From: an uncultured Bacilli bacterium
GTDB lineage: Bacteria; Bacillota_I; Bacilli_A; RF39; UBA660
Assembly (NCBI GenBank): GCA_910586195.1
Contig: CAJUHO010000004.1
Span: forward strand, 9,295 to 73,294
Direction: 5' to 3'
DNA length: 64,000 bases
The first letter of the stretch is position 1. Each line of letters opens with the position of its first letter. A program made the position numbers and the translations under genes. Of this stretch, positions 19,800 through 43,715 are shown piece after piece. Under the pieces are notes generated by a model. That model had not been told where the DNA came from, searched no databases, and saw only the letters and a list, made by a program, of their open reading frames with translations.

Positions 19800-21083
19800 T
19801 TAATTAGGAATAACAAGTTTCTGTCCAACACTTAATAAATTACTTGTTAGATTATTAGCACGTATAATGGCATCTACTGATGTTCCAAAACGATTAGCTA
19901 TTAACCATAAACTATCACCTGGCTGTACTGTATAAATTGTTTGAGAAGTAGAACTTGGTATAACTAACTGTTGTCCAATTGACAATACATTACTAGTTAA
20001 ATTGTTAGAATTAATAAGATCGTTTACAGATACACCATACTGATTTGCAATGGACCATAAACTATCACCACTTTTCACAGTATAAACAATCTGTCCAGTA
20101 TCCTCTCCTTCGTTTTCAGTACTCGGAATTTGTAAGACTTGGCCTATTTGCAAAACATTAGATGTTAAATTATTTACTCTTTTTAATTCATCTACAGAAA
20201 CACCAAACTTATTTGCAATGGACCATAGACTATCACCAGCTTGAACTATATAAGATGTAGTATTATCTGTCGGTGGGACTATAGGAGTTGACGCTCCAGG
20301 CAATCTTAAAACCTGACCTATTTGTAAAGTATCTGATGTCAAGTTATTAAGACGTTTCAACTCATCTACTGTAGTATTAAATCTATTTGCTATTAGCCAT
20401 AGACTATCACCTGATTGTACTGTATAAGTAGCATTAGAATCTGGCGTCACAACTGTACTAGGCAAATTTAAAACCTGGCCTATCTGTAAAGTATTTGACG
20501 TCAAATTATTAAGACGTTTTAATTCATCCACTGTAGTATTAAATTTCTCAGCAATCAACCATAAACTATCACCCTTCTGCACTGTATAAGTCGTACTACC
20601 AGAAGGTGGAGGAGTTGGAGTTGTATTTGGAACTTTTAATACTTGACCTATTTGTAAAGTATTTGATGTTAAATTATTAACCCTTTTTAATTCATCTACA
20701 GAAACACCAAGTTTATTAGCAATTGACCATAAGCTGTCACCTTTTTGTACTGTATAATATTCTCCCATACCTTCTGGTGGAGTATAATTATATCCACCAT
20801 AGTTGGCAAGTGCTCTCACTACGGCCTCTACATAGTTTAAAAGATCATTTTGCAATTTTTTACTATCATTCGCATTATCAATAAAACCATACTCAACTAA
20901 AAGTGGTTGTGTCTTCCCTGTTAATCGATGTATAAAATAGTAATCCTTCATTGGATCTTCAGGCAAACGTCTCTGATAATACTTGCGCATAATTTGTCCT
21001 TCGCTTCCAATTGCCTCTAAAACATTCTTGGCAAGAGTACTATTGTTCCTTAAAGCATAAACTACCTCTGCACCTTCTCCACC
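19800..21083 (-). pseudogene. C-terminal fragment of an N-acetylmuramoyl-L-alanine amidase (Amidase_3) with six LysM repeats, severed by the insertion at 21084
   Basis: In-frame extension upstream of the track ORF reads GGEGAEVVYALRNNSTLAKN... (Amidase_3 C-half) and stops inside the island at 21090..21092; six LysM units (YTVQ.GDSLW.IA..). Confidence 0.75.
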
Positions 21084-21115
21084 ACAAGGTTAGCTCTCCC
21101 AAAGATTACTACATT

Positions 21116-22051
21116 TCATTTCATAAGTTCTTTTAATATATTAATAACTCCAAGCGGATTTGAATTAATAAGATTCTGTAATTGTTTTAATTCATCCGTG
21201 GCCAACTCTACCATATCTTTATTTTTATCTAAATAATCTACATTAATGTCTATATATAGCAATTCTTTTATCATATCTATACTTTCATTTGTAATATCTT
21301 CTTTATTGATATCAGACATAATAACAAACCATCCAAGAACAATATAGTTTATATCTATAGGTTCATTAGTGGACTTATTTAAATATTTTAAACAAAGATA
21401 CAATAGTAATTCCACAAAATACGCATTTTGCTTTAAAGCAAACACATATAATGAAGTACGATTCTCTTTACTTAACTCTACCATAGCATTGACTACTAAA
21501 GTACTATGAGTAAAAAAGCATAATTTATCATAAAATTCATCTAACATATCTTTTAACTGTTTATTGCTAAAATCATTGAAAAAATCTTTATCTACTAATC
21601 TCAATACTTTTCTAAACTCATTTCTTAATTTTTGTGGTTTTGTAAATGTTCTAGTTTTATCGTCAATACTTAAATTAATAAATTCATTATAAACATTTTC
21701 ATCATAAAATATCATCATACCCATTATTAAATTTTCAAAACAAGATCTTAGTATAGTATTAGCATCGACTATACTATTATTCTTAATTAATTTATGAACA
21801 TTCTTTAGTGACATATTTGTTTGATTTAATAAATTTATTGTTTCTTTTTTTATATCCTTGTTAAAATATAAATCATTTATAAACTTAGAATTATTTATCC
21901 TTAAAACTCTAACAAATTTATTTTTTGTTTTAGTTCTGGCAATTTCTTTTAACTCATTTAGCTTTCCTTTGGCTATTAAATTAACAAATTCATTAAACTT
22001 TTCTTCACCCAATTCATTTTTTAAGTTCTCTATGTCTTTTTCAGTTATCAT
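21116..22051 (-). CDS. hypothetical protein (island cargo, 311 aa)
   Basis: ORF at the left edge of the element; no recognisable motif. Confidence 0.5.
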   Translation of the reverse strand: MITEKDIENLKNELGEEKFNEFVNLIAKGKLNELKEIARTKTKNKFVRVLRINNSKFINDLYFNKDIKKETINLLNQTNMSLKNVHKLIKNNSIVDANTILRSCFENLIMGMMIFYDENVYNEFINLSIDDKTRTFTKPQKLRNEFRKVLRLVDKDFFNDFSNKQLKDMLDEFYDKLCFFTHSTLVVNAMVELSKENRTSLYVFALKQNAYFVELLLYLCLKYLNKSTNEPIDINYIVLGWFVIMSDINKEDITNESIDMIKELLYIDINVDYLDKNKDMVELATDELKQLQNLINSNPLGVINILKELMK

Positions 22052-22128
22052 GCTATCACACCCTTGGGTATCTATTATATAACTATATCTACGAAAGATA
22101 AAGACCTCACTAGATGAATAGTGAAGTC

Positions 22129-23790
22129 TTACTTGCTATACTGATTTTTGCCTTTTCTTCCATAAGGATTACGAGCAACATTTAAATTTTGATATTTAAA
22201 AGTACAATCTGGCATAACACCATATTTATATTGGATTGTTATTACTCTATTTTCATCAATTACTATTCTATCTATCAACGAATGAACTAATTCTTTTTTA
22301 GGTTTATTTAAATCTAATAATTTCTTTATTTCCTTTGTATAATCTGGCAGTTCATCTAATTTAGATTTAACTTCATATTTTCTAATTTGATCTTCATCTA
22401 TACTTTGATTGATAAGTTTTAATTTTTCTTCAAAAGGTTTTGCTAATTCTTTATAAGTATCTGCTGTTATTACTTCATTAAATCTATCTTCATATAAAGC
22501 AGTTAGTCTTTTCGTTATTTTCTCTTTTTCAGCTAATAAATTATTAATGTTGTTATCCAAATTTCTAGTTTGTTTTTGAACTTCAATTTGAACTTTTTTA
22601 TTTAATTCTTCAAAATCTAATCTTTCTAGTTGTTTACATACATCTTTAGTAAATTTTTCCATTATTTGATTCTCTAAATAGTTATATGGAAAGAAATGTG
22701 AACTACATTGTTCTCTAATTGGATCTCTTGCATATCTATTACAATTAACAGTCCAATAATCACGATTTTTTCTATATAGCACTGATAATCTATTCCCACA
22801 TTCTTTGCAAAACAATTTACCTTCTAAAAGTCTTTTTTCTCTTCTATTCTTAGGTTGTATATCTTTTGTATTTTGTTTTATTAATTTAGAGATATATTCA
22901 AAAGTATATTTATCCACTAATGGTTCATGGGTATTTTCAACTATCATCCACATACTTTGATCTAAAGTTATCTTTTTCTTAGATTTATAATTAACTTTAG
23001 TTTGTGTATGTTGAATCATATCTCCAGTATAAATTCTATTAGATAAAATTTTCTTTATAGAAGATATATTCCATTTATCTCTATTAATAAGTCTAGTTGA
23101 ATAATTAGTCTTTTTATAACCACTTGGTGTTGAATACCCTTTTTCATTTAACATTGTTGCTATTCTAGAAGGTCCTATTCCATTTTTTCTCCATTCAAAT
23201 ATCTGTTTAACAATTGGAGCAGTTTCTGGATTAGGTATTAAATGTCCTTTATCTTCTGGATCTCTCATATACCCAAAACAAGGTAGACTACCAACGAACT
23301 TTCCATTCTTTCTTTTTTCATTTAATACATTTCTGATTTTAATTGAATTTTGCTTACTATAATAATCATTACAAGCAATTATAAATGTTGATGAATCATT
23401 ACTAGCTTGATTTTTAAAACTATCATACGATTCTAGTATAGATATAAATCTTATATTATTTTCAGGAAAATATGACTCCATGTAATAGCCTGTCATAACA
23501 TGATCTCGACCTAATCTTGATAAATCTTTTACTATTACACAATTTATCTTTTTATTTTTTATATCTTTAATTAACTTTTGAAATCCAGGTCTTTCAAAAT
23601 CAGTTCCAGAATATCCGTCATCTACATATTCTCCTACTAAATTAAATTTATTATTTTTGACATAATTTGTTAATAACTCTCTTTGATTTATTACACTTTC
23701 ACTATCAGATTCATATTTTTTATCTTTATCTTCTTGAGATAATCTTATATAAATTCCAGTATTGAAATCTATGTCCGATTTATTATTCAC
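22129..23790 (-). CDS. large serine recombinase (resolvase N-terminal catalytic domain plus recombinase domain plus zinc ribbon)
   Basis: YIRLSQED catalytic Ser region, VIVKDLSRLGRD, C-terminal CKECGNRL...C zinc ribbon and coiled-coil; 553 aa. Confidence 0.85.
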   Translation of the reverse strand: MNNKSDIDFNTGIYIRLSQEDKDKKYESDSESVINQRELLTNYVKNNKFNLVGEYVDDGYSGTDFERPGFQKLIKDIKNKKINCVIVKDLSRLGRDHVMTGYYMESYFPENNIRFISILESYDSFKNQASNDSSTFIIACNDYYSKQNSIKIRNVLNEKRKNGKFVGSLPCFGYMRDPEDKGHLIPNPETAPIVKQIFEWRKNGIGPSRIATMLNEKGYSTPSGYKKTNYSTRLINRDKWNISSIKKILSNRIYTGDMIQHTQTKVNYKSKKKITLDQSMWMIVENTHEPLVDKYTFEYISKLIKQNTKDIQPKNRREKRLLEGKLFCKECGNRLSVLYRKNRDYWTVNCNRYARDPIREQCSSHFFPYNYLENQIMEKFTKDVCKQLERLDFEELNKKVQIEVQKQTRNLDNNINNLLAEKEKITKRLTALYEDRFNEVITADTYKELAKPFEEKLKLINQSIDEDQIRKYEVKSKLDELPDYTKEIKKLLDLNKPKKELVHSLIDRIVIDENRVITIQYKYGVMPDCTFKYQNLNVARNPYGRKGKNQYSK

Positions 23791-24123
23791 TTTTACTTCC
23801 TTCTTTTAATCGGATATTAAGACTCATCATCTTATTAGATTGGCAAATCATTAATTTGATGAATCTCCTTTTTCTTCTTTTATTATCTCTTCGATTAGAT
23901 ATTTTAAAATAAGATCTTTAAATGTAGTGCTAGTCAAATAGGCATCCTTCATTATTAAATCACCTATTTAAATTTATGTTTAAATTATTTATTATTGATA
24001 TTTTTATGTACATTTATCAAACTCCTTTCTAGTTATATATTTAAACTAGTTAATTTATAATATTAATATTTTTATATTTTATTTATTATATTATTATAGT
24101 TAAATACATCTTTTGAAAACGAA

Positions 24124-24173
24124 AAATACATCCATTTAATTAGTCCTCATAATCTAGTCCTATGGATGTATTT
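24124..24173 (-). terminator. terminator hairpin (12-bp stem) overlapping the stop of the 99-aa HTH gene
   Basis: aaatacatccat...atggatgtattt, followed on minus by a UUUUCGUUUU tract. Confidence 0.5.
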
Positions 24174-24439
24174 ATCTCATTAATTATAAATATTTTTCTT
24201 ATGAATTTATGTTTAAATTCCATTTTAATATAATTATTATCAGATAGTTCTTTTAATAATCTAGTAATAGCTCTAGTGCCTACATTTAACTTATCAGCTA
24301 AATAACTATTATTAGCATAACAATATCCTTCTTGATAAGTTAATAATACTAATAATCCATATAATAATTTAGCACTAGAACTAACATTAGTATCTGAAAA
24401 TAATCCTATTGGTATTTTTATATAATTATCATAATTCAA
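24140..24439 (-). CDS. helix-turn-helix DNA-binding protein (element regulatory/replication-organiser-like)
   Basis: SSAKLLYGLLVLLTYQEGYCYANNSYLADKLNVGTRAITRLLKEL wHTH pattern; GGAGGTGG RBS. Confidence 0.6.
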   Translation of the reverse strand: MNYDNYIKIPIGLFSDTNVSSSAKLLYGLLVLLTYQEGYCYANNSYLADKLNVGTRAITRLLKELSDNNYIKMEFKHKFIRKIFIINEINTSIGLDYED

Positions 24440-24468
24440 ATAACCACCTCCTAATCATTATCTTTGTA

Positions 24469-24609
24469 ATTATGATTTTTCAACATTTCAATATAACCTA
24501 TCTCTAATAATTCCTCCATCATTTTAGAAATAGACAACTTGTAAAATTTAGCCATTAATTTTATTCTATCGAATAATTCAAATGGTAAGTATAATTTAAA
24601 TATTCTCAA
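24469..24609 (-). CDS. small ribbon-helix-helix (CopG/Arc-like) protein, 46 aa, TTG start; below the ORF-track size cutoff
   Basis: AGGAAGGAG RBS 8 nt before TTG; sequence RIFKLYLPFELFDRIKLMAKFYKLSISKMMEELLEIGYIEML matches the beta-strand/helix/helix RHH pattern; lies 29 nt upstream of the HTH gene. Confidence 0.45.
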
Positions 24610-24906
24610 AAATATCACTCCTTCCTAATAGGATGATTTCCTATTAAATATTGTAATTTTTAAAAAAGCAGTATAAGAAAATAGCACCATAAACTAAAAA
24701 AATCCTTATAGTATAAGGAAATTTAATGGTGCTATTCTTATTTCATACTTACAAAATTCATCCTACTTTGTAGGTTATTATATAGGATATTACTATTTTA
24801 ACCCTTTATTTATAATAGATATTAATTTGTTATTATTATCCTATTTTAATAAAATCAGTAATTTTTATAGGATGACTAGTCATAATCATCGCCTCCATTA
24901 AAACAG

Positions 24907-24929
24907 CAAAAAAGAAGACCTAGGTCTTC
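24907..24929 (-). terminator. rho-independent terminator: 16-bp perfect palindrome GAAGACCTAGGTCTTC followed by U6 on the minus strand
   Basis: Perfect palindrome with A6 on + immediately upstream. Confidence 0.6.
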
Positions 24930-24974
24930 CCATAAATATTGCTATTTTACTATATTTTATCACTTGACTGTATT

Positions 24975-25125
24975 TAGTCAATAAACTAAATTGTATTTTT
25001 TTAGTAGTCGAATAGTAAACTAGATTGACTTTAAACAGTAAACTAAATCGTATTCAAATCGTACGCGAATAGTACAGTACACTAAATTGTATTTGGATAA
25101 TAATATCTTAAACTAATCGCTTACA
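24975..25125. repeat. cluster of five degenerate 15-16 bp direct repeats (TAAACTAAATYGTATT) plus GAATAGTA repeats; iteron-like
   Basis: Copies at 24983, 25017, 25039, 25081 and 25109 with irregular 22-42 bp spacing, in the non-coding region between the helicase stop and the terminator. Confidence 0.5.
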
Positions 25126-25217
25126 TTTTTACAGGGTACTTATTGTAGAGTAATTTCTAAACTTTTATATTATTTTGTAACCAAACGATTTCGTAATTTA
25201 ATTTTCAGTATAAATAG

Positions 25218-27944
25218 CTATTCTGATTTAATTATTTTTTGATTTAATATAGCTAAATCTCTATTACAATCTTTTTTATCAAAACTATCAAATATTTTCT
25301 CTTGACTATCAGCACTCCAATAAACTTTTAAATTTTTTTTAGCTCTAGTAATAGCAGTATAAAAGATGTTTTTTGTTATTCTATCATCAATATTTGAAGT
25401 TATTACTACTTTGACGCTCTCGTACTCAAGACCTTGAGCTTTATGAATAGATATAGCATAAGAAAGATTAAAAGGAATTATATGTGCATATTCGTTTTCA
25501 TCATCATCCTTATCTCGAAATTCATTTACTTTAAATCTAACAATTATTTTATCTTCTTTGTCACTTTCTAGCAATTCTACATCATATGGTGCAAACATTT
25601 AATTTATAGATTTTTTATCAACCTCTATTGAAAACCACATCGCATCTTCATCTTCTTCTATATTTTTAATAATTCCTTTTAAATTATTATGAAGAAATCC
25701 ATTAAATCTTGGACAGTCATTAAATAAAACATAATCATCAACTTTAAAAGTATCCACACCAAAATTATATTCTTTATTTTGATTTGAGCTTTGCATAACT
25801 TTATTTATATTATTAATTCCATACATGCCATCATAATTTAAACATAAAATGATTTCATCATCAAAAGTTTTTTCAAATATATTTTTAGATACTTTTTCTG
25901 AATATTCTTTACTTCCCATTATTGAAATAGCTTTTTTATCATTGACTCTAACACACTTCCATAATTCTAACAAGTCTTTATCAGATGTTCTATGTGTCAT
26001 TTCTAATTCAAAAGACACTCCGTTTTTAAAATACTTACTACATATTTGAAACCAATTACCATATTGGATAGATTCTATTTGATATATATCTCCAACCATT
26101 ACAATAGCATTATAATTACCTTTTTCTAAAATATTTAACATATCTTTATTGCTGACCATACTACATTCATCTATTATTAATAAATCACAGTTTCCATTAT
26201 AATTTTTTTGATAATTCTTAATTGTCATTATTTTTAGTTTATCATTTTCTTGTAATCTTGATTTTAAATTTGTTACAGCGGTATTAGTATTCGAAATTAA
26301 ACATACATTGTAATACTCAAAAACATTAGATAATAATTCTATCATTTTAGTTTTGCCAGTACCTGCTGGCCCATATATAAAAGCAATTGAAGAAGTTTTA
26401 AAAATATCATTTAAAATATTAACTTTATCTTCTGATATTGATTCACTACATAGACAATCTTTATAGAATGTTACTATAGAATTTAAAATACTATTAACTT
26501 CACTAGCTTTTTCTTCTAATTTTTTTATAATTTGAACAGAATTTTTTTCATAATCTTTAATATAAAGAAAACCCTTATCTAAAACTAGTATACTGTCTGT
26601 ATTTTTTAATCTTGATTTAATTTTATTATTAAATTTTTCTACTAACTTTGGAATATCATCAAAATAGCCTATTTCATTAACTGGAGTATATAGCTCATCA
26701 TTATTCTCTGTGTTGTTTTTGATATAAGAATATAATAATTCATCATCTCTTTCAGTTATTTCAACAGATTTAATTAAATCATGAAATTTTGGATTATGAT
26801 TATGAAGAGACATCGCATATGGCATAGCATCGAACAATCCACTCTTTTTATGAATGTACAAGTTACTTAAATATGGGTGTAGTGTTTCTCCTATTTGATC
26901 TCTAATAACTGTATTTATCATCCTTGTTGTTAGGTACCTTATTATATTACAACCAGGCTTATTATTAACAATTATTTCTCTCATTTTTTCTAACATTGAA
27001 CTGATATGATGATTATCTGCACCATTTCTAATATTTTCTATAATTATTTTAAAATCATAATCATTAGAACACAGAATATTATTTATAGTGCATTCATTAT
27101 CACTTAGATAATCCATCAAATTACGATACTCTTTATAGTTTTCATCAAAGTTTTTAGTTTCTCCCATTATCTTGAAAAGATTTTTTAATTCACAAGTTCT
27201 AATAGCAGTTTTGCATGAAGTAATTACTTTAATTTTTACTTTACCTACATTTAAGTCAATAACATCATCCACCGAAGTTATATTAATAGAGTAATTATCT
27301 GGAATATAAATTTTAGAATAAAATGTTAATCTTTCAAATTTATTATTATAATCTGTCGCTTTTGATAAAGTTATCTCATAATATATATTTCCTTTTGAAA
27401 AAATAGTATTACTCTTTTCAACATAAAATTTTCCTTTTATTGTTTTTTTATTTTTTTGATTTATATGTTCAATCCTATCACAAATAATATCATAGTTTTC
27501 CTTCATTGACTTATCATCATATACTGGAAATAAATCAATATTGTTAATTATTTTTAAATCAAATTCTTCTTTTAATAATTTTTTAATTAAGCAGATGTAT
27601 CTATAATAATATTTTACCAGTCTTTCTGCACTATCCTCATTAGGTGTATAATGAGAAGCTGTTCCTTGTAGATAATTATGAAAATCACATAAAAATTTAT
27701 ATTGCTTCTTACCTTTTATAGCATCAAATGAAGAATTTACATTATCATAATGTGTATCTAACTCTAAATTATTAATTTTGTTATTAAGTAGTATAGCAAC
27801 ATCTTCTACTAAATTTCTCAATTGAGATAAAATATTTTCTGAAAGAAATCCTTTATCTTTAAGTTTTGTATCATAATAATAAATATTTTTATCTATAACT
27901 TTTGAAATATAGGATATTTCCTTTTCTGGCGATATTCTAGACAT
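25218..27944 (-). pseudogene. SF1 (RecD/AAA_30-UvrD_C_2-like) helicase with about 480-aa N-terminal unknown domain, interrupted by a single in-frame TAA (781 aa plus 126 aa in the same frame)
   Basis: Walker A GPAGTGKT, Walker B LLIIDECSMV, GDIYQ motif; motif VI IHKAQGLEYESV lies in the downstream 126-aa ORF, which starts with ATG immediately after the TAA in the same frame. Confidence 0.65.
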
Positions 27945-28003
27945 TACTCCACTTCCTTAATGCAATCTATAACACTTTCTATAATTTTAATTATTTCAAT
28001 ATT

Positions 28004-29452
28004 TTACTTTTCTTTTGTATTTATAATTTTTTCTATATCATCACAAAGAGGTAATAATTGTTCTAACTTATCTACTATTCTTTGTTGTTCTTCTATTGGT
28101 GGTAATGGAATAAGCAAATTGTTTAAACTTTTTGAATTTAATGTAGTTCCTTTAATTGCACTTTTACTATCACCATATTTAGTCATAAATGGTAATATTT
28201 TAAATAAATATTGTTTTAAGATTTCAAAATCATAATTAGGATATATTGAAATTATTCCTTCATTGTGAAAAGCATCTATTTTTAAAATCGAACATCTTCC
28301 AACTGTCAGTTTAAAACTCATTAATAAAGTACCTTTTTCAGAAAATTTTTCTTTAAACACTTCCTTATATGCTTTTTCTGATACATATTCTTTTGTGTTA
28401 TCAATAAAACCATTTTCCACCATATCAGAAATTGATACCCAATGATATTCATCTTTGCTCCAATAACTAGAATCGCTCCTAGGTGGAGTTTTACCGATAT
28501 TAAAAGAAACAAGCTCTCCCAATTTTATCCATACCCAATTATTAGGTAACTCAAATGGATAATTATCAATACTGGTTACCTTTTTACCAAGTTTGGTTTC
28601 TATTTCTTCTAAAACATCAAGAGTATTTTCGCTATTTTTTTGATTTGTTAATTTTCCAGATACAGCACTTTGAATTAAAGATTTCCTTAAATCTTTTGGA
28701 AAATCTATTTTCAATTTTTTAATATCTTCTTCTATTGGTTTCAATTCATTGAGTTTTGCAAATAACTCTTCTATTTTATCTACTATTCTTTGTTGTTCCT
28801 CTATTGGTGGAATCGGAATATAAAAATTTCTTAAGTAATTTAAAGAAACAAATTGCTGAACTCCACCAGAACTTTCTTTTTTCATCTTTTCTTGCGAAAA
28901 ATATAAATAATAATACAAAAATTGATTGTCTATACAATCTTTGATTGGATTTTTTAAAAGTGCAACATTTTTTATGCAAAAATCTTTTTCGGTTTTTATA
29001 ATTACCGGGTTTCCTATACTGCCTATCATTGCAAATAATATATCATCATTTTCCACTTTAGATCTAATATTTATACTTTTAGCATCTTCATCAGAAATGT
29101 ATTTAACATTACTCATATCTAATGTCCCATCAATATTAAGGTTTTTACTTGTGACTAATGGGACTCCATCTTTATAATATTTTGGACTATCATGAGTTCC
29201 ATCTCTAACATCAATTGCGTAATATAACTTAGTCCATATCCAAGTTGACGGTATTGTATATGGATAATTTTTTTTAATTGGTTTTGAAACTTTTTTATCT
29301 GCTTTTATTACTTTATTTTCAATTAATTTATTATGATTCGCCTCTATTTTTTTTTCAATAATATTTATATTGGTATCTGTCAAAATCGTTTTACTTAATT
29401 TACCACTAAAAGCATAATTCAATATCGATACTTTTAACTCATCTACTATCAT
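28004..29452 (-). CDS. hsdS: type I restriction-modification specificity subunit (two TRDs)
   Basis: Two target-recognition domains separated by conserved central and C-terminal repeats (PIPPIEEQQRIVDK occurs twice). Confidence 0.85.
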   Translation of the reverse strand: MIVDELKVSILNYAFSGKLSKTILTDTNINIIEKKIEANHNKLIENKVIKADKKVSKPIKKNYPYTIPSTWIWTKLYYAIDVRDGTHDSPKYYKDGVPLVTSKNLNIDGTLDMSNVKYISDEDAKSINIRSKVENDDILFAMIGSIGNPVIIKTEKDFCIKNVALLKNPIKDCIDNQFLYYYLYFSQEKMKKESSGGVQQFVSLNYLRNFYIPIPPIEEQQRIVDKIEELFAKLNELKPIEEDIKKLKIDFPKDLRKSLIQSAVSGKLTNQKNSENTLDVLEEIETKLGKKVTSIDNYPFELPNNWVWIKLGELVSFNIGKTPPRSDSSYWSKDEYHWVSISDMVENGFIDNTKEYVSEKAYKEVFKEKFSEKGTLLMSFKLTVGRCSILKIDAFHNEGIISIYPNYDFEILKQYLFKILPFMTKYGDSKSAIKGTTLNSKSLNNLLIPLPPIEEQQRIVDKLEQLLPLCDDIEKIINTKEK

Positions 29453-30936
29453 TTTATATCACCGATTAATTTAATAATTTCTTGCAGTTTTATATCAAGT
29501 TCTTTTTCTAATTTTTCTCTTTTCTCGATAAAATTATCCATAGTTTCTTTTGGTGATAAAATAACTTCTTCTTTAACTGGAAAACCACATTGATCTAAAT
29601 TATAATTTAATTTTTCTATTTCACTAACAATAAATTTTTTTGATTTCCAAGTTTCAGTTAAAGATTCATCTTCTTTTATGTCTTTAATTTCCTCGCGATT
29701 ATTCCACCAATCGATAACTGGTTGTAAATGTTTTAATTCTACTGGTTTAGTTTTACTAAATGCTTTATAACCATCTGGCATATCCATTCTATAAAACCAT
29801 ATTTCATCAGTCTTTTTGGTTTTATCAAAGAATAAAAGATTAGTTGCTATACTTGTATATGGTGCAAAAATTGATCCTGGAAGCCTTATAATAGTATGTA
29901 AATTGCACTCTTCAATTAATTTTTTCTTAATTGCTATTTTAGTATTATCATTTCCAAATAAGAATCCATCTGGTAACACTATTCCTACTCTACCATTATG
30001 TTTTAATCTATAAAATATCTCTACCATAAATAAATCCGCTGTTTCTGAATTCCTTAAATCTGCTGGAAAGTTTTGCTGAATTGCTTTTTTTTCTGTTCCA
30101 CCATAAGGGGGATTCATTAAAATTACATCAAACTTATCTTGTTCTTCATAATCTCTTACATTTGCTTCAAGAGAATTACCTCTAATAATTTTTGACTCAT
30201 TTATATCATGAAGTAGCATATTAGTTACACATAATAGGTAAGGTAAAGATTTCTTTTCAACTCCGTAAAAAGAATTGTTTAATATTTCATTATCATTGGC
30301 ATCTTCAACACTTTCTTTCATGTAATTAAGAGCAGATACTAGGAATCCTCCAGTACCACAAGCAAAGTCGGCCACTGTTTCGCCAATTTTTGGTTCAACC
30401 ATTTTAACTATAAAATCTGTAAGTGCCCTTGGTGTATAAAACTCCCCAGATTTACCAGCACTTTGTAATTCTTTAAGAATAGTTTCATATATTTCATTAA
30501 ATGCATGTCTTACTTTAAAGTCAGTTAAATCAATTTCATTTAAAATATTAACTACTTGCCTTATTAAAACTCCATCTTTCATATAGTTATTTAAGTCTGT
30601 AAATACTTCTTTTACTAGTCTTCCTCTAGTATCAGTATTCTCATCAACTTCTAAATCTTTTAAATGAACGAATAATTGAGTAATAAAAGATTCCATTTCA
30701 CCACCAGTAATGGCTTTCCCATCTTTCTTATCAATAGCCCAATTTCTCCATCTATATTCTTCTGGAATTATTGAAGTATAATTATCTTCATAAATTTCCC
30801 ACTCTGATTCTTTAGCATCATAAAGTTTTAAGAATAACATCCATACTATTTGTTCAATTCTTTGAGCATCACCATTAATTCCAGCATCCTGTCTCATTAT
30901 ATCTTGTAGTCTTTTTATCATTGTGCTTATATTCAT
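29449..30936 (-). CDS. hsdM: type I restriction-modification N6-adenine DNA methyltransferase subunit
   Basis: FxGxG SAM-binding FACGTGGFL; catalytic NPPYGG; overlaps hsdS by 4 nt. Confidence 0.9.
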   Translation of the reverse strand: MNISTMIKRLQDIMRQDAGINGDAQRIEQIVWMLFLKLYDAKESEWEIYEDNYTSIIPEEYRWRNWAIDKKDGKAITGGEMESFITQLFVHLKDLEVDENTDTRGRLVKEVFTDLNNYMKDGVLIRQVVNILNEIDLTDFKVRHAFNEIYETILKELQSAGKSGEFYTPRALTDFIVKMVEPKIGETVADFACGTGGFLVSALNYMKESVEDANDNEILNNSFYGVEKKSLPYLLCVTNMLLHDINESKIIRGNSLEANVRDYEEQDKFDVILMNPPYGGTEKKAIQQNFPADLRNSETADLFMVEIFYRLKHNGRVGIVLPDGFLFGNDNTKIAIKKKLIEECNLHTIIRLPGSIFAPYTSIATNLLFFDKTKKTDEIWFYRMDMPDGYKAFSKTKPVELKHLQPVIDWWNNREEIKDIKEDESLTETWKSKKFIVSEIEKLNYNLDQCGFPVKEEVILSPKETMDNFIEKREKLEKELDIKLQEIIKLIGDIK

Positions 30937-30947
30937 AATTTACCCTC

Positions 30948-33284
30948 CTATCCGTATAATTTTGTTTTAATCATATTAATCATGCTATTATATTTTTCTT
31001 TTCCACCAAAGATATTATTAACTATTTGTACTAAACCACCAAACTTATTAAAGTTTTTAACATTTAATGTTTTAATATTTTCAAGTTCGGTTACTCCGTT
31101 ATTTCTATAAGTATTTAATAATTCTTCTACAACTTCTTTTTGCTTTTCTGTATAAATATTCATTTCTTCTGATTCTATTACTTTTTGTATTCTATCTTCT
31201 TTAGAAACAAAGTCTATATCATAAGCAACATTACTTAACAAATCAAATTCATCAACATTTGTGTCATTAAGTTGTTCGAGTAATGCATCAACCATAATAC
31301 CCTCACTTGATAAATAATCTAAAAATTCTTGTTTTGATTCCGCTCTAAACCAACTTTGAACGAATCCGTCATGATTTTCATATAATCTTTTCAATTGCTT
31401 TTTTGAATACTCTGCAATAGATTCTGTTATTAATTTTCCATCAGCATCATAGTACTTAACAGTTTCCTCAATTATAGAAACATCGACACCCTTTATATAT
31501 ACCTTTTTTGACTCGCCATCTAATATATCACCACTAAGAGGTTTTGCTGGTTTAGGTTCTGGTACACCATAATCTACAGGTAATATATCTTTATCACCAT
31601 TTCCACCTTCAACTGTTAAAACCATTTCTGCTGGTCCATTAAATGATGGATCAGCAAACTTTTCAGAGTTATTTCTAAAGTCCATTATAGTAAAATATTC
31701 TTTTCCTTTGTTTGGAAGCAATCTTGTACCACGGCCTATAATTTGCTTAAACTCTGTCATGCTTGCTATTTCTTCATCTAAAACTATTAATTTAACTGTT
31801 TTAGTATCTACTCCAGTTGATAACAGTTTAGAAGTAGTTGCTATTACTGGATAATCAGTATTGGCATCAGTAAAATTTTCTAATTGTCTTTTTCCTATAT
31901 CATCATTACCAGTAATTCTTACTACATAATTTGGATTAATTTTAACCATATCAGTATTTTCATTTACTAATGCATTACGCATTCTTAATGCGTGTTCTGT
32001 ATCTACGCAAAATACAATTGTCTTTGCCATACGGTCTGTTGCTTTTAAAAATTCTGTAATTCTTTTTGCTACTACTTTAGTTCTTTCATCTATAACAATA
32101 GTTCTATCATAATCTGAAATTGTATATTCTCTATCTTCAACTTCATATCCCTCTTCATCAAGTTTACCTTTTTCTGGGCGATATCCCTCTAAATCTCTGT
32201 CTATTCCTACTTTAACAACTTTATATGGAGCTAAAAATCCATCTTCAATACCCTGTTTTAATGAGTAAGTATAAATAGGTTCTCCAAAATAATTAATATT
32301 AGATACATCCTCTGTTTCTTTCGGAGTAGCAGTCATACCTATTTGTATAGCATTATCAAAATAAGTCAATATTTCATGCCAATTGGAATCATCTCTTGCA
32401 CTACTTCTATGACACTCATCTACTATAATTAAATCAAAGAAGTCTTTAGTAAATTGTTTATATATATCCTTATCTTGACTTTTCATTTGATGATATAAAG
32501 ACATATATATTTCAAAAGAAGAATCCATATTTCTATGTTCTATTTTTGTCATAACTTTTTGAAAAGGTTTAAAATCGTTTTGCATAGTTTGATCAATTAA
32601 GATATTACGATCTGCTAAATAAAGTATTTTTTTACAAAATTTAGTTTTATGTAATCTATGTATTATTTGAAATGCAGTAAATGTTTTACCTGTACCAGTA
32701 GCCATTACTAACAAAAGTCTTTTTCTACCTTTAGAAATGGCTTCAATAGTTTTATTAATAGCAACCCTTTGATAATATCTTGGAGTTTTATTAATATCTA
32801 AAAAGTAATAAGGTTCTGTAATAAGCTTTTCTTGTTCTTCATCAATATTTTTTTCTTTTAAATATCTTTGCCATAATTCTTTTGGAGTTGGGAACTCATT
32901 TATTCCAATCTCTTTTTCTTCACCAGTAATCATATTGTGTTCGTAAAAGCCATCACCATTAGAAGAATAAGCAAAAGGAATATCTAAATCATTTGCATAA
33001 TCCATTGCTTGTTGAATACCATGTGATACTGTTACTTTATTATCTTTTGCTTCAACTATAGCAATGGGTAAATTAGATTTATATGATAATAAATAATCCA
33101 CTTTTTTACCTTTACTTCTTTGTGCCACATTTTCTCTAACATTTATCTTACCAGCAGTATAATAATACTCACATCTGATTTGACTTTTAATATCCCAGTC
33201 TGCTTTTTGTAAAGCAGGAGTTATATATTTTAACTTAATATCTTCTTCCGTTAAATCCTTTTTAGTTAATCCTGCAAAATCCAT
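30948..33284 (-). CDS. hsdR: type I restriction enzyme R (restriction/translocase) subunit
   Basis: HsdR_N-type N-terminus (ITPALQKADWD); helicase motifs MATGTGKT and IIVDECHRS; 778 aa. Confidence 0.85.
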   Translation of the reverse strand: MDFAGLTKKDLTEEDIKLKYITPALQKADWDIKSQIRCEYYYTAGKINVRENVAQRSKGKKVDYLLSYKSNLPIAIVEAKDNKVTVSHGIQQAMDYANDLDIPFAYSSNGDGFYEHNMITGEEKEIGINEFPTPKELWQRYLKEKNIDEEQEKLITEPYYFLDINKTPRYYQRVAINKTIEAISKGRKRLLLVMATGTGKTFTAFQIIHRLHKTKFCKKILYLADRNILIDQTMQNDFKPFQKVMTKIEHRNMDSSFEIYMSLYHQMKSQDKDIYKQFTKDFFDLIIVDECHRSSARDDSNWHEILTYFDNAIQIGMTATPKETEDVSNINYFGEPIYTYSLKQGIEDGFLAPYKVVKVGIDRDLEGYRPEKGKLDEEGYEVEDREYTISDYDRTIVIDERTKVVAKRITEFLKATDRMAKTIVFCVDTEHALRMRNALVNENTDMVKINPNYVVRITGNDDIGKRQLENFTDANTDYPVIATTSKLLSTGVDTKTVKLIVLDEEIASMTEFKQIIGRGTRLLPNKGKEYFTIMDFRNNSEKFADPSFNGPAEMVLTVEGGNGDKDILPVDYGVPEPKPAKPLSGDILDGESKKVYIKGVDVSIIEETVKYYDADGKLITESIAEYSKKQLKRLYENHDGFVQSWFRAESKQEFLDYLSSEGIMVDALLEQLNDTNVDEFDLLSNVAYDIDFVSKEDRIQKVIESEEMNIYTEKQKEVVEELLNTYRNNGVTELENIKTLNVKNFNKFGGLVQIVNNIFGGKEKYNSMINMIKTKLYG

Positions 33285-33352
33285 ATTACCACTCCAAACA
33301 CTTTATATACATAAGTATAGCATAAAATAAACGTTCTTTTAACTGCCATAAC

Positions 33353-33381
33353 GAAAAAAGTAAGATAAATTTTACCTTACT
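33353..33381 (-). terminator. putative terminator after the Fic gene (agtaag...cttact, U6 on minus)
   Basis: 6-bp stem, A6 on + upstream. Confidence 0.35.
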
Positions 33382-33465
33382 ATCTATAACTCTTTTCTTA
33401 TTACTTTACTATTTATTTTTTCTTTGATTTTATTTCCATATACATATGACTTTTTTATCACAAAT

Positions 33466-34302
33466 TTAAAATAATTCTTTAACTATTAAATCTCGCGAAT
33501 GCAAATTATTATTTTTACCTAATAGTAAGTTTTCATAAAATTTAACTAAATAACTACTATCTTCCTTTATATTTAAATAATTATTAAAATAATTACTTCT
33601 AACTAAAGCATTTCTAAAATATACTGATTTATCTTTAAATAGAGTATTATCTACATTATAGCCTAAACTAATTAAATATTTTTCTATAAATAATACTGTT
33701 GTTCTAGTATTACCTTCTCTAAAAGGGTGTACTTGCCATATATTAGAAGAAAATTTAGTTATATTATTAATAACTTCAACTATATTCATTTCTTTATAAT
33801 TTTTTTCTTTTTCTAAAGATATATCATATTCTAATGATTCAGTTAAGGTATTACAATCACCATATGCTACTGAATCATTATTTAATATCTTTTCATGTTT
33901 AGAAAAATCTATTTTTCTAAATTCGCCAGCAAATTCATAGACATCTTGAAATAAAAACTTATGAACATATTTTAAATAATCAACTGATAATTCAAATTTG
34001 TTTTCTTGTAATAATTCAACTATTCTAGCAGATACAAAATCACATTCTAATTCATTATGATTTATTTCATTTTTATTTTCTTTTTCAATATAATATTCTT
34101 TTAATTCTTTTTTCACTTCTTCAATAGTTAAATTACCCTCTACATTTTCCTCTAATAGTTTTTCTAAATATTTAGAAGGTTTTAAATTATCTACTTCTTG
34201 AAGACCAATAGCCATATCCCATTGTAAATGTTTTACATAATTACTAGATTTATATTCTTCTTCATATTCATTAACACTTGAATCTAATTCTTTTTCACTC
34301 AT
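33466..34302 (-). CDS. Fic/DOC family protein
   Basis: Fic motif HPFREGNTRTTVLF, a variant of the HxFx(D/E)GNGRxxR consensus; 278 aa. Confidence 0.75.
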   Translation of the reverse strand: MSEKELDSSVNEYEEEYKSSNYVKHLQWDMAIGLQEVDNLKPSKYLEKLLEENVEGNLTIEEVKKELKEYYIEKENKNEINHNELECDFVSARIVELLQENKFELSVDYLKYVHKFLFQDVYEFAGEFRKIDFSKHEKILNNDSVAYGDCNTLTESLEYDISLEKEKNYKEMNIVEVINNITKFSSNIWQVHPFREGNTRTTVLFIEKYLISLGYNVDNTLFKDKSVYFRNALVRSNYFNNYLNIKEDSSYLVKFYENLLLGKNNNLHSRDLIVKELF

Positions 34303-34376
34303 AATTTAAACCTCCTAACTATTACTAGTATAACATATAAATTGAAGTTTTAGTTTATTATTAATCTCATTATAAA

Positions 34377-36431
34377 CTAATAGTTTATACTTTGCTCGAT
34401 AACTGTAGCTAATGATCTTAATTTAAATACTGACTTTTTTACTTCATATAATAAATACATTGTATTTTCAGGTAAACGATTTTTATCAATTGCACGTAAT
34501 ATTCCAACTTCTTCACTAGAAAGAGTTTTAAATATATTAAGCAATTCTTCTAAAGATGGTGAAACATTTGTATCTCTTAATAGCAAAAACAAATCGCGTG
34601 GTGATAAAGCTCCTAGTTGCTCCTGCTCCTTGTAAAATTTTGCAATCACATTGTTGATGATTTCTAATTCTCTTTGCTTTGTTGATATAGTTTCAGTAAG
34701 TTGTGAAAAACCATTAGGCACTTGAAAAATCAAAGATATTTCTTGCAGACTTAATCCATATTTAATTGTTGATTTAGCCACTTCAATCAATTGCTCTACT
34801 GTAATTAATGAAAATTTCTTTTTTCTAGCATGATTTATTATAGTATCTCCACTAAAATGAGGTCCAACTATTGCTACATAATCAGCACTATTTTTATCTT
34901 TATGGGTATCTATTGCTACATCGCTTATATCACCATGTGAAACTTGACCTCCGGATTTGGATTTTCCATCTATTATTGCTGTAATAATTTTCCCATTATC
35001 ATCCTTCCAATGTACAACAACATCTGTATCTCCTGGTCCACCAATTTTCTTTGTTTCAAAGCCCATAAAAGTCATCATTTCAGCAATTGATTCCTCAAAG
35101 GCAACTCCTACTGGTTTCCCTTCAGCATTTGGATTTTTGGAAGTATTATCTAAGCGATTAGCAATGATAGAAAGATAATCTTCAAAATTATTATCTAAAT
35201 ACCCACTATCTTTATTATTCTCTTCTTTTTTTTCAAGCTGTTCCATATTTAATAATGGTAAATCAGACACAAAACATATTCCTAGTGGTGTTGCTTTTAA
35301 ATGCAGATATTGTGGTTCTTCTAAAAGACCTGCTTCAATCAAAAATCCTGCTATCCATCTAGCCTTTTCTTGATTAAGGCCATACAATTTAGCTTGCGCA
35401 TATACATCATTACGAATTATATCGTTTTCAGCATACTTTATCATTTCACCTACAAATCTCATATGTGAATGAAGAATTCTAATAAAATCTAAATCATTTC
35501 CCGTTTCAATCCATGATTTAGCAGTAGCGGTTGCTACATATATATTTCGACCAACCTCTTCAATAAAACCTGCTACTTTTAAAAAAGGTAACATTGATTC
35601 AACACTACTTAATTTAAGATTAAATTCTTTACATATAAAGTCAAAAAATTTATTTCTAGTAATTTTCTCAGTTGCATATTGAACTATTATTCGTAAATTT
35701 TCTATTCTATTTGGGCTAGGTGCCCATATATTATATGTACTTCTCTTATTATGTAATTCTGGTGAAACCATTAAATTATTAAGTAATATAGCAATATCTT
35801 CAGGTGGAGCGGAAATTTCCAATTCATTTAAATCAAAATCCATTGGTTCTAAAATTTCAGAAGGGATTAAGTCCCATTCATTTAATACTTTTATACCATT
35901 ATCAGTTACTTTCCATTTTCGATTGCCAATTTCCTGTATTAAGTCTAAGACCTCAAGCCAATCCATCCTTCTTCTAATATTACTTAGGTGATTCCACTTT
36001 AAATCATAATCCTTACATATTGACTTATTAACCTGTTCTACTGTAGCAGGTTCTAATGCAATCAGATTTAATACCTCTCCAAATAAACGTATCTTTTCAT
36101 TAATAATATTAGCAAGCTGCTTTTTTGTTAAATTGTTTAAAAACTCATTCCCTTTCTCTGTTAAACATAATACTCCTGCTTGGTTACTTACAAGTCCAAT
36201 ACCTTTTAAAAAAGGCATGTACTCTCTCCATGGCAGTAGCTGATTAATTTCAAGTATATTTGGTATAGTATTCAAATCATTTGCCTTGTTCTCACCTACT
36301 AGTATAATAAGATTTTTAACCAAAACGAACCAATTAGTTTTACCGCCTCTTAAATCAGGAATCGACCAACTTTTTCTTCGCCATTCATTTCTTTTTTTAT
36401 CTAATTCTTGTCTATTAATAACCTCACTCAT
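34377..36431 (-). CDS. 684-aa protein with C-terminal Mrr-cat-like (PD-(D/E)xK restriction endonuclease) domain and large N-terminal winged-helix-like region
   Basis: FMGFETKKIGGPGDTDVVVHW...AIIDGKSKSG...DYVAIVGPHFSGDTIINHARKKKFSLITVEQLIE matches the Mrr catalytic core (GDGGID / QCK motifs). Confidence 0.55.
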   Translation of the reverse strand: MSEVINRQELDKKRNEWRRKSWSIPDLRGGKTNWFVLVKNLIILVGENKANDLNTIPNILEINQLLPWREYMPFLKGIGLVSNQAGVLCLTEKGNEFLNNLTKKQLANIINEKIRLFGEVLNLIALEPATVEQVNKSICKDYDLKWNHLSNIRRRMDWLEVLDLIQEIGNRKWKVTDNGIKVLNEWDLIPSEILEPMDFDLNELEISAPPEDIAILLNNLMVSPELHNKRSTYNIWAPSPNRIENLRIIVQYATEKITRNKFFDFICKEFNLKLSSVESMLPFLKVAGFIEEVGRNIYVATATAKSWIETGNDLDFIRILHSHMRFVGEMIKYAENDIIRNDVYAQAKLYGLNQEKARWIAGFLIEAGLLEEPQYLHLKATPLGICFVSDLPLLNMEQLEKKEENNKDSGYLDNNFEDYLSIIANRLDNTSKNPNAEGKPVGVAFEESIAEMMTFMGFETKKIGGPGDTDVVVHWKDDNGKIITAIIDGKSKSGGQVSHGDISDVAIDTHKDKNSADYVAIVGPHFSGDTIINHARKKKFSLITVEQLIEVAKSTIKYGLSLQEISLIFQVPNGFSQLTETISTKQRELEIINNVIAKFYKEQEQLGALSPRDLFLLLRDTNVSPSLEELLNIFKTLSSEEVGILRAIDKNRLPENTMYLLYEVKKSVFKLRSLATVIEQSINY

Positions 36432-36679
36432 ATTGACACCTCTATTTCAAAAAAATAAGCAGTATCCATCTTAAAAGATTAAATACTGTTATCTTATATA
36501 TAATAACACATTTTTCGACATTTTTTAGTATTTTAAAGTAATTTGTACTTAAAATTCTAAGTTTAAAGCACTTATTATCTTCAAAATATGATTTTTGATT
36601 AAATTACTATAATTTATTTTCATTTAAATACAGCCGTCCTAATACCCTTATAAATTTAATCAATGCAAGAGCTAAGTCC

Positions 36680-36962
36680 CTCCACCTGCATTTATGTGAT
36701 TAGATATTACAATGACATTGGGATCATTTCCATAAGCATCCAATATTCTTCTAACTCTCTCATCCCTATCAACTGTTTCATCACTACCTCTTACAATTGT
36801 GGTTGGTATTCCAAGTTCTTTTAATCGATCATACATATACTGTGCCGCTTTTAAATTTAAATCTTTTTCTTTTAATCCATTTGCTACCGCTCCTGGATCA
36901 CTACCACCATGTCCAGCATCTACCACGATTCCTTTAATCGCTCTATCGTTCATCCTTTTCAC
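36680..36962 (-). pseudogene. N-terminal fragment of the same Amidase_3 gene (MKRMNDRAIKGIVVDAGHGGSDPG...ISNHINAGG), truncated by the island
   Basis: Amidase_3 N-half motifs; reading frame terminates 2 codons into the island DNA (..GGT*). Confidence 0.75.
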
Positions 36963-37061
36963 CTCTAATATAAGTTATGACACTTTGGACTGTTTGTGAA
37001 AACTTTATTAAAACAAAAACGGAACTTAAAAATTCCGTTCCACTAAAATCTTATCAATCCT

Positions 37062-40070: not shown

Positions 40071-40117
40071 ACCTCTTTCTATAAGTTAATTATCTATTTC
40101 ATTGTTATAACAAGCAT

Positions 40118-43577: not shown

Positions 43578-43715
43578 TTCTTTCTACTACCTACCCCATC
43601 TACCCTTTCTTCTCTATGCTCATTATAACATCATTTTACTGAAATGACGACATAATATAATAACTACAAAAAAACTATTGATTTTCTACCATCAATAGTT
43701 CAAAGATTACAATTC

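Follow-up and report, generated by a model that had tools for sequence, protein, structure and literature searches.

A site-specific serine-recombinase island with defence cargo splits a LysM amidase gene in uncultured Bacilli and may be linked to sporulation

We analysed a 64,000-nucleotide stretch (the window) of contig CAJUHO010000004.1 from an uncultured Bacilli bacterium (assembly GCA_910586195.1), in which a LysM amidase gene lies in two pieces on either side of an element carrying a large serine recombinase (LSR) and defence genes (Table 1). A preliminary description of the sequence had proposed such an LSR-borne defence element inside the amidase gene, at a target site that can be reconstructed. 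This is borne out by an empty site in the same species, by the like arrangement of 68 of 80 related loci and by defence cargo throughout the family. The GC content is 25.5% inside the element and 29.8% over the remaining window, and all interior open reading frames (ORFs) are on the minus strand. We hold with high confidence that the locus is a site-specific LSR island belonging to a family of such islands.

As read in the window, the N-terminal Amidase_3 ORF occupies 36672..36962 on the minus strand and ends ...ISNHINAGGGT*, and the frame entering at 21083 on the same strand reads ...GGEGAEVVYALRNN... (GGEGAEVVYAL) and runs through six LysM repeats to a stop codon at 19800; translation thus agrees with the two fragments first described. 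The start assigned to the N-terminal piece has to be moved, as position 36962 is a GTG within the ribosome-binding site (RBS) and alignment of orthologue upstream regions places the true start at the ATG at 36953, where the orthologues begin. Intact homologues, namely P0001 (99% identical), P0002 and P0003 (about 80%) and P0014 (60%), read HINAGGGEGAEVV, with three glycines (NAGGGEGAEVV). The contig encoding P0001, L001, has the same genes downstream as the window (a 261-aa ORF, an ABC ATPase and a GntR regulator), and its DNA across the site (L001:1480-1510, CACATAAATGCAGGTGGTGGGGAAGGTGCAGAGG) also encodes NAGGGEGAEVV, providing a same-species empty site. Joining the fragments at a GG dinucleotide (CC at 21082-21083 and 36682-36683 on the plus strand) yields a 517-aa ORF with 98.7% identity and 0 gaps relative to P0001. 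The reconstructed DNA differs from the L001 site by one synonymous base, save for which the unoccupied attachment site (attB) of L001 equals the left part of attL, the core and the right part of attR. In silico excision rebuilds an intact ORF, whose protein has a single Amidase_3 match covering profile positions 1-173 of 174 (residues 9-183) together with six LysM repeats. The reconstruction first put forward, NAGGEGAEVV, is one glycine short of all four homologues and of the L001 DNA; it is in that literal form that it mismatches the empty site, whereas the corrected GG-core version fits without gaps.

Practically no credence can be given to the alternative that the amidase pieces are separate paralogues or independent pseudogenes. 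Nothing beyond their physical separation speaks for it, apart from the presence of a second Amidase_3 gene in the window (the CwlD-like gene in Table 1), but that gene is only 29% identical to the split amidase. Both pieces are covered by one 99%-identical protein, encoded on a contig with the same downstream neighbours, the joined ORF is gap-free with one continuous Amidase_3 domain, and the empty site refutes the idea outright. The original view of the fragments as halves of one gene therefore stands.

The crossover point was mapped with 26 N-junctions and about 60 C-junctions from related loci. All 26 N-junctions read HxNAGG, with element DNA directly after the GG of the second Gly codon, and all of the C-junctions pass from element DNA into GG-TGG-NGA (Gly-Gly-Glu/Asp). 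Across the family the two sets have nothing in common but the GG of the second Gly codon; the crossover takes place at this non-palindromic 2-bp core, is conservative and duplicates no target sequence. The attB site (CACATAAATGCAGGTGGTGGAGAAGGTGCAGAGG) comprises the amidase codons His-Ile-Asn-Ala-Gly-Gly-Gly-Glu, with the crossover at the GG of the second Gly codon. The rebuilt attP, of about 50 bp, is quasi-palindromic, AATGGGAGAGCTAACCTTGT-GG-AGGGACTTAGCTCTTGCATTGATT (also written GTAATCTTTGGGAGAGCTAACCTTGT-GG-AGGGACTTAGCTCTTGCATTGATTAA; junction sequence GAGAGCTAACCTTGTGGAGGGACTTAGCTCT), with symmetry at 16 of 24 positions around the GG, including perfect 8-bp arms 6 nt from the core. These arms, TTAGCTCT at 21090-21097 in the attR P half-site and AGAGCTAA at 36668-36675, are the inverted motifs noticed earlier just inside the junctions, and the layout matches the attP architecture expected of a serine integrase.

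The sequence CTCCACC does occur at both 21077..21083 and 36680..36686, where it had been read as the junction repeat and core. Because the copies are offset by 3 nt from the true crossover, they are not a target duplication; the pair is absent from relatives and is a coincidence of Gly-codon (GGT-GGA) periodicity. Two other registers were considered and rejected. A crossover in the 7-bp CTCCACC register yields GG where intact homologues and the empty site have GGG. A GG crossover at the third Gly codon restores GGG as well, but leaves attP asymmetric (17 versus 11 nt to the arms) and conflicts with L003-type junctions, in which the overlap of attL and attR with attB covers the second Gly codon only.

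Metagenomes hold more than 6,000 homologues of the LSR. Scanning one genome per species returned 575 relatives, and locus counts out of 80 refer to the best 80 of these 575. Their LSRs are 52-97% identical to that of the window, and all come from metagenome-assembled genomes of uncultured gut Bacilli, among them genomes labelled Mycoplasma sp. CAG:877, Firmicutes bacterium CAG:884, Candidatus Faecimonas intestinavium and uncultured Tenericutes; two consist of a closed chromosome, of 1.26 and 1.52 Mb. Every one of the 80 loci has the LSR, and in 68 it adjoins an amidase fragment broken at residues 89-96, at the same GG. In 60 of these an amidase C-fragment that begins at residues 82-94 follows downstream of the LSR at a distance of 27 nt to 3.5 kb, and in 8 further loci the LSR stands beside an amidase fragment in the opposite orientation. 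The remaining 12 have no amidase match, 8 of them with less than 700 nt of flank. In one subgroup (L074, L077, L078, L079, L081 and L083, also L085 and L086), with LSRs 56-59% identical to that of the window, the recombinase gene and the neighbouring amidase N-fragment are on opposite strands; the element has the reverse orientation to that of the window element, with the break at the same codons.

Recombinase and amidase identities are discordant across the family, with identical or nearly identical recombinases in species whose amidases share only about 60% identity. For example, L022 and L023 have LSRs 97% identical to that of the window and amidases only 57-60% identical, while L027 and L030 combine LSRs of 83-86% identity with amidases of 78-79%. 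The elements therefore move between species. The family is previously undescribed, in that we found no account of LSR elements targeting an Amidase_3/LysM gene in the literature searched, itself limited in scope.

The recombinase matches the Resolvase (E 5.5e-22), Recombinase (E 1.7e-22) and Zn_ribbon_recom (E 4.3e-10) families, and its Ser18, in the conserved YIRLS motif, is invariant in the family alignment. Among solved structures its catalytic domain is nearest to TnpX (2mhc, E 5e-27), and the whole protein aligns to SprA of SPβ (PDB 9dxd, E 6e-13). A 33-aa ORF (p33) precedes the LSR gene and was found by tblastn in 39 of the 80 loci, always just upstream of the LSR and conserved at the coding level. 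Other LSR subfamilies have analogous ORFs of 27-61 aa with a common amphipathic helix segment, [FL]x[DE][LI][ILV]xx[YF][LI]I. At least five subfamilies conserve such a tiny ORF ahead of the LSR gene, and in each of them a −10-like CATAnnnTT motif accompanies it. From the analogy to GirX, a protein of 42 aa (PMC5595907), we infer that p33 is a candidate recombination directionality factor (RDF), that is, an excision factor. Upstream of p33 (23979..24060, minus strand), an RBS-like AGGAG and an ATG open a very short frame that runs into the CATA motif; many relatives conserve it, and it may encode a leader peptide or have a regulatory role.

Further upstream lie a helix-turn-helix (HTH) gene of the HTH_36 family and a 55-aa ORF (p55), which had been paired as ribbon-helix-helix (RHH) and HTH regulators. 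The HTH assignment holds by Pfam and PHROGs, whereas the supposed RHH protein, p55, has no family match; neither p33 nor p55 matches Pfam or PHROGs. HTH_36 is encoded in 31 of the 80 loci and is missing from the minimal element of L047, making it an accessory core gene. The iteron-like repeats described earlier are present as three copies. The 21 complete elements range from 3.2 to 15.6 kb, the smallest (L047, 3.2 kb) consisting essentially of p33, the LSR and one further ORF. The family is built on a fixed recombination module (p33 and LSR, often with HTH_36) that carries exchangeable cargo, mostly restriction-modification (R-M) and other anti-phage genes.

The GG codons (AGG|GEG) are one of three LSR docking sites in the amidase, the other two being DAG|HGG (site 1) and GD|SLW in a LysM repeat (site 3). 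Contig L001, with its 99%-identical amidase, is empty at GGG and interrupted at DAG|HGG (L001:1..1260). This insertion ends with a Bro-N domain gene and may be a prophage. A different LSR of 534 aa, with DUF4368, occupies site 1 in L013/14, L077 and L078, making a second LSR family there; it ends about 36-45 nt before the amidase HGG codons (L013:1..1070; L077, L078). P0003 is truncated at site 1 too. At site 3, in the first LysM motif (YTVKRGD|SLWSIA), L019 harbours an element with a 521-aa LSR and a DpnII-type R-M system (L019:13400..20380) in addition to its GGG-site element, and a 61-aa ORF overlaps the start of this LSR, with a CATAGAATT motif before its RBS. Independent LSR elements can thus leave a single amidase gene in three or more pieces. 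The only close LSR relative on an IMG/VR contig, L102 (73% identical), has the usual p55-HTH_36-p33-LSR module in its amidase. The catalytic C-fragment on that contig is closely followed, on the opposite strand, by another LSR (L102:13643..14944; 25% identical), which may belong to a prophage occupying site 3.

The defence cargo was identified with Pfam and PADLOC, which agree with the preliminary description on the LSR, the Fic protein, the Mrr-like gene and a complete type I R-M system inside the element. The helicase was also recognized, as a PDC-S53-type protein, although its frame is interrupted by a TAA at 25599-25601. The resulting ORFs of 781 and 126 aa match positions 5-770 (upstream ORF) and 779-894 (downstream ORF) of the 900-position PADLOC profile, and the TAA is either a nonsense mutation or the mark of a genuine two-gene form; given this TAA, part of the cargo may be decaying. 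In the window element these genes cluster (type I R-M, PDC-S53, PDC-S72 and the Mrr-like gene), and a DpnII-type R-M system occurs among relatives. Individual cargo genes are rarely shared: over the 80 loci HsdR, HsdS and DUF5677 were each found twice, Fic eight times, and the helicase and Mrr-like gene not at all. Related elements carry, for example, Thoeris, Fic, Dcm and McrBC (L003), AAA_15, Fic, Mrr/NA-iREase, MazG and a Schlafen-type helicase (L013), or a type I R-M system with a tyrosine recombinase (L019). In the last, the tyrosine recombinase (Phage_integrase) gene lies between hsdM and hsdS (L019:2049..2879) and resembles phase-variable, shufflon-type hsdS systems. A Pfam scan of 84 non-redundant ORFs pooled from the 20 other complete elements was dominated by DNA methylases, ResIII, McrBC, MutH-type and AlwI nucleases, Fic, AAA_15/21, Schlafen, PLD, nSTAND3 and SocA_Panacea; it was more informative than a PADLOC scan of the same set, which returned methyltransferase families only.

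No relaxase/Mob, oriT or type IV secretion domain was found in element ORFs of at least 90 aa, and no phage structural, packaging, lysis or satellite gene in the window element by Pfam and PHROGs. The 25 commonest Pfam families of the pooled cargo include none for phage structure or conjugation. The element is a non-phage, non-conjugative, LSR-mobilised genomic island. We consider it very unlikely that it is instead a degraded prophage or phage satellite, with defence genes that would be moron-type cargo of a former virus. The LSR does match a PHROG integrase family (E 7e-100), HTH_36 resembles the N-terminal domain of phage replication initiators, the 73% relative is on an IMG/VR contig and the L001 strain has a Bro-N gene at a different site of the amidase. 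However, the viral call of the IMG/VR contig may have been earned by the second, unrelated LSR beyond its amidase fragment, and identity to LSRs in INPHARED (50,697 phage records) is at most 33%. Moreover, neither the window element nor the top 25 cargo families include capsid, terminase, tail, portal or lysis genes, and the elements measure only 3.2-15.6 kb.

Table 1. Position, strand and assignment of features in and around the element
Feature	Coordinates	Strand	Remarks
Element-specific DNA	21084..36681	-	15,598 bp; 15,600 with one 2-bp core; mapped against the empty site L001 and family junctions
attL (gene orientation)	36658..36707	-	B half-site 36684-36707; core GG (CC 36682-36683 on plus strand); P' half-site 36658-36681, containing the AGAGCTAA/TTAGCTCT arm
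attR (gene orientation)	21058..21107	-	P half-site 21084-21107; core 21082-21083; B' half-site 21058-21081
Amidase 5' fragment	36684..36953	-	Met1 up to Gly92, without the first two bases of Gly92
Amidase 3' fragment	19800..21081	-	Remainder of catalytic domain and six LysM repeats, to stop codon
Amidase sigma-K-type promoter-like region	36951..36997	-	AC (36996-36997), N16, CATAACTTA (36971-36979), RBS AGAGGTG, ATG
311-aa ORF	21116..22051	-	Weak DUF5677 match; between LSR and junction; variable cargo
LSR	22129..23790	-	553 aa; Resolvase, Recombinase and Zn_ribbon_recom (Pfam)
p33	23851..23952	-	33 aa; 60 nt upstream of LSR; candidate RDF
−10-like sigma-E/K-type motif	23970..23978	-	CATAAATTT; conserved, 4 nt upstream of p33 RBS
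HTH_36 protein	24140..24439	-	99 aa; Pfam, PHROGs; like N-terminal DNA-binding domain of phage/plasmid replication initiators
p55	24451..24618	-	55 aa; RHH-like by eye only; in 15/80 loci
Iteron-like direct repeats	24979..25094		Three, about 20 nt, CARTAMACTAAATYGTATTY; intergenic
Superfamily 1 helicase	25218..27944	-	PDC-S53-type (PADLOC); candidate defence gene; in-frame TAA
Type I R-M	28004..33284	-	HsdS 28004-29452, HsdM 29449-30936, HsdR 30948-33284; Pfam/PADLOC
Fic-domain protein	33466..34302	-	PADLOC candidate PDC-S72
Winged HTH and Mrr-like nuclease protein	34377..36431	-	684 aa; HTH_45 E 1e-10; Mrr_cat E 6e-4, weak, just under gathering score
Second type I R-M	HsdR 37062-40070, HsdS 40118-41179, HsdM 42081-43577		Embedded PIN_12 gene 41180-42100
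HtrA			After second R-M, before Abi_2 protein
Abi_2 protein	44803-45756		After HtrA
SpoIID/LytB-domain protein	46877..47932		CATAnnnT[AT] layout
CwlD-like amidase	47925..48608		CATAnnnT[AT] layout; second Amidase_3 gene of the window
PMCA-type Ca2+-ATPase	8286..10892		CATAnnnT[AT] layout

Just outside the element, upstream of the amidase, the window contains a second defence cluster (37062..45756); at the corresponding place L003 has a GmrSD/HNH gene. The amidase flank may also be a variable defence region.

The state of the interrupted gene bears on what the insertion means. None of the 26 amidase N-fragments in relatives contains a stop codon, and 59 of the 68 C-fragments are open for at least 250 aa. 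The nine shorter ones comprise one of 244 aa, four that stop at about 125-128 aa (with a second LSR downstream in three of these loci) and four in which the alignment begins before the junction. Judged from these reading frames, the amidase fragments show no decay in the species examined. Across 20 species, amidase upstream regions have diverged past alignment save for the RBS and a CATAnnnTA about 4-5 nt before it, which is present in 18; the longer pattern AC-N16/17-CATAnnnTA is found in 14 of the 20. This is the sigma-K consensus, and sigma-E and sigma-K have a common −10 and differ at the −35, ATA versus AC (PMC3789822). We infer that the amidase is probably a late mother-cell sporulation gene, functionally like CwlC.

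A CATAnnnT[AT]-RBS-start layout occurs in five genes only of the 64-kb window: the amidase, p33 and the genes for the Ca2+-ATPase, the SpoIID-like protein and the CwlD-like protein, of which the last three may form a small sporulation-type regulon. When all loci are taken together, the genes that have this layout fall into clusters, the largest being p33 (37 loci), a hydrolase of the SleB/CwlJ family (142 aa) whose gene adjoins the amidase (29) and the amidase itself (19). Other clusters consist of tiny ORFs that precede the LSRs of four more subfamilies, the site-3 LSR among them. Spore formers, in a mix with non-spore formers, are predicted for the related uncultured orders RF39, RFN20 and ML615J-28 (Field et al., PMC10868615).

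Because the fragments are intact, the sigma-K-type amidase promoter is conserved and the recombination module has a CATA-type −10, the insertion is probably better described as a reversible, possibly developmentally programmed interruption. The preliminary description had it that integration inactivated the amidase; the interruption is real, and plain inactivation is probably too simple. We postulate that the island is kept in the germ-line chromosome, where it would serve as a defence island at no cost, and that p33, made from a CATA-type −10 promoter positioned relative to its RBS as in the amidase, would act as an excision factor. Excision in the terminally differentiating mother cell would then rebuild the 517-aa amidase, a behaviour like that of skin, SPβ and gin. 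In its workings the element is like known LSR elements, and it may plausibly be counted, with gin and skin, among the gene-intervening elements of sporulation. We put the sporulation-linked (developmental) excision by itself at an even chance, and favour with moderate confidence the whole explanation, in which the LSR island and its family are combined with skin/gin-like excision in the mother cell.

Several observations weigh against this explanation. First, p33 has no detectable homology to any known RDF and its promoter has no clear −35. Second, as a control showed, −10 motifs directly next to the RBS occur in these genomes as often with TATA as with CATA; the promoter argument is therefore carried by the conserved C and the AC −35 only. 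Third, the SpoIID-like and CwlD-like proteins fall below the NCBIfam equivalog cut-offs, the nearby SleB/CwlJ-family gene likewise scores under its equivalog threshold, and the 64-kb window contains no spo0A, sigE or sigK. Fourth, the excised form was not seen: the attP pattern GCYAAYYTTGTGGANNNACTTAGCTC had 0 matches in JGI metagenome contigs and IMG/VR, a weak test given that circles are rare in assemblies, and a control attR pattern was found in 19 JGI metagenome contigs. Lastly, intact fragments could also reflect recent and frequent turnover of the elements.

In a rival account, an ordinary site-specific island knocks out a dispensable autolysin, the codons of the catalytic motif serve as a landing pad, as tRNA genes do for tyrosine integrases, and excision is occasional and for transfer only. 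We regard this account as a real possibility, if below an even chance. An almost invariant coding motif would by itself explain the conservation of the target, and movement between species means that insertions may be young, which would explain the intact fragments; the lack of an attP junction in the contigs searched and the unproven sporulation of the host fit it too. It also has precedent, as LSR phages commonly disrupt genes such as comK, groEL1 and spsM (PMC7192596). What it leaves unexplained is the full sigma-K consensus at the amidase promoter in 14 of 20 species, the conserved CATA −10 that precedes the tiny ORF of five or more LSR subfamilies, some of whose LSRs use another site of the amidase, and the presence of three independent LSR docking sites in a single gene. 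Nor would it account for the filled site of most close relatives and of many species-representative genomes, in which the gene has decayed no further.

Excision in the mother cell could also be imagined on the scale of an entire clade of gut Bacilli with reduced genomes. One late-sporulation amidase would then be a shared platform for up to three independent LSR elements (at DAG|HGG, AGG|GEG and GD|SLW) that hold much of the exchangeable anti-phage repertoire, all of them excised in the mother cell by an LSR and a tiny RDF under sigma-E/K. The rebuilt mother-cell lysin would permit spore release and free the circular islands into the environment, coupling sporulation to the horizontal spread of defence without phage or conjugation machinery. 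We offer this extension as speculation and think it improbable.

If developmental excision is true, the programmed reconstitution of genes by LSRs, known from a handful of Bacillus and Clostridium examples, would reach into a large uncultured lineage of the gut, where the target gene is a new one. Gene-intervening elements might in that case rank among the main carriers by which defence systems are exchanged, and the persistence of defence islands without a vegetative cost would have an explanation. Without the sporulation link too, the family supplies dozens of natural LSR/attP/attB triplets with a mapped 2-bp core, useful for serine-integrase tools, as is its conserved candidate for the excision factor, some 33 aa long. 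The family further lends itself, as a clean natural system, to the study of cargo turnover on a fixed mobility module.

Among known systems, pipolins (PMC11551731) likewise combine a constant mobility module with exchangeable defence cargo, but they use another integrase class and carry pPolB, whereas the hotspot here lies inside catalytic-motif codons and interrupts the gene. The staphylococcal cassette chromosome (SCC) resembles our family in being an LSR island with one docking gene (rlmH/orfX), variable cargo that often includes R-M, and tandem accretion at the site. SCC elements differ in having a CcrA/CcrB pair or CcrC and Cch helicase replication genes, and in inserting at the 3' end of rlmH without destroying it. 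None of these traits occurs here: the window element has a single LSR and targets the catalytic motif of the amidase, which places it outside SCC. Tn4451/Tn4453 are small non-conjugative LSR elements with a GA/GG-type 2-bp core, and their TnpX has the closest solved catalytic domain. However, no TnpZ/Mob or oriT-like function was found in the window element, and TnpX has a relaxed target choice and needs no RDF, while our family has a single strict target gene.

Closer parallels come from elements that interrupt sporulation genes. Skin in sigK (B. subtilis and C. difficile) and SPβ in spsM, which are excised by SpoIVCA or SprA with small RDFs, are prophages or their remnants (PMC4191935, PMC5499854, PMC5025042). 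Like the window element, they are LSR interruptions of a mother-cell gene (putatively so for the amidase) with a short core in coding sequence, and SprA is detectably homologous to our LSR. Their timing is set by an RDF under mother-cell sigma control, for which p33 would be the counterpart. They differ in their prophage origin and target genes, and the window LSR forms a lineage of its own, with no more than 33% identity to phage LSRs. The nearest likeness is to gin, a non-phage element with R-M cargo in gerE of Bacillus cereus ATCC 10987 that is excised in sporulation by the LSR GirC and the 42-aa GirX (PMC5595907). Gin differs in its target (gerE rather than a LysM amidase), in its host (Bacillus rather than an uncultured small-genome gut member of the Bacilli) and in having three LSRs where our elements have one each. 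The cargo of the window family is far more variable and almost wholly defensive, and sporulation-specific excision, shown for gin, is here a prediction. Both are non-phage elements within coding sequence that carry R-M genes and an LSR with a very small, motif-less partner (GirX, 42 aa; p33, 33 aa), and in both precise excision would rebuild the gene.

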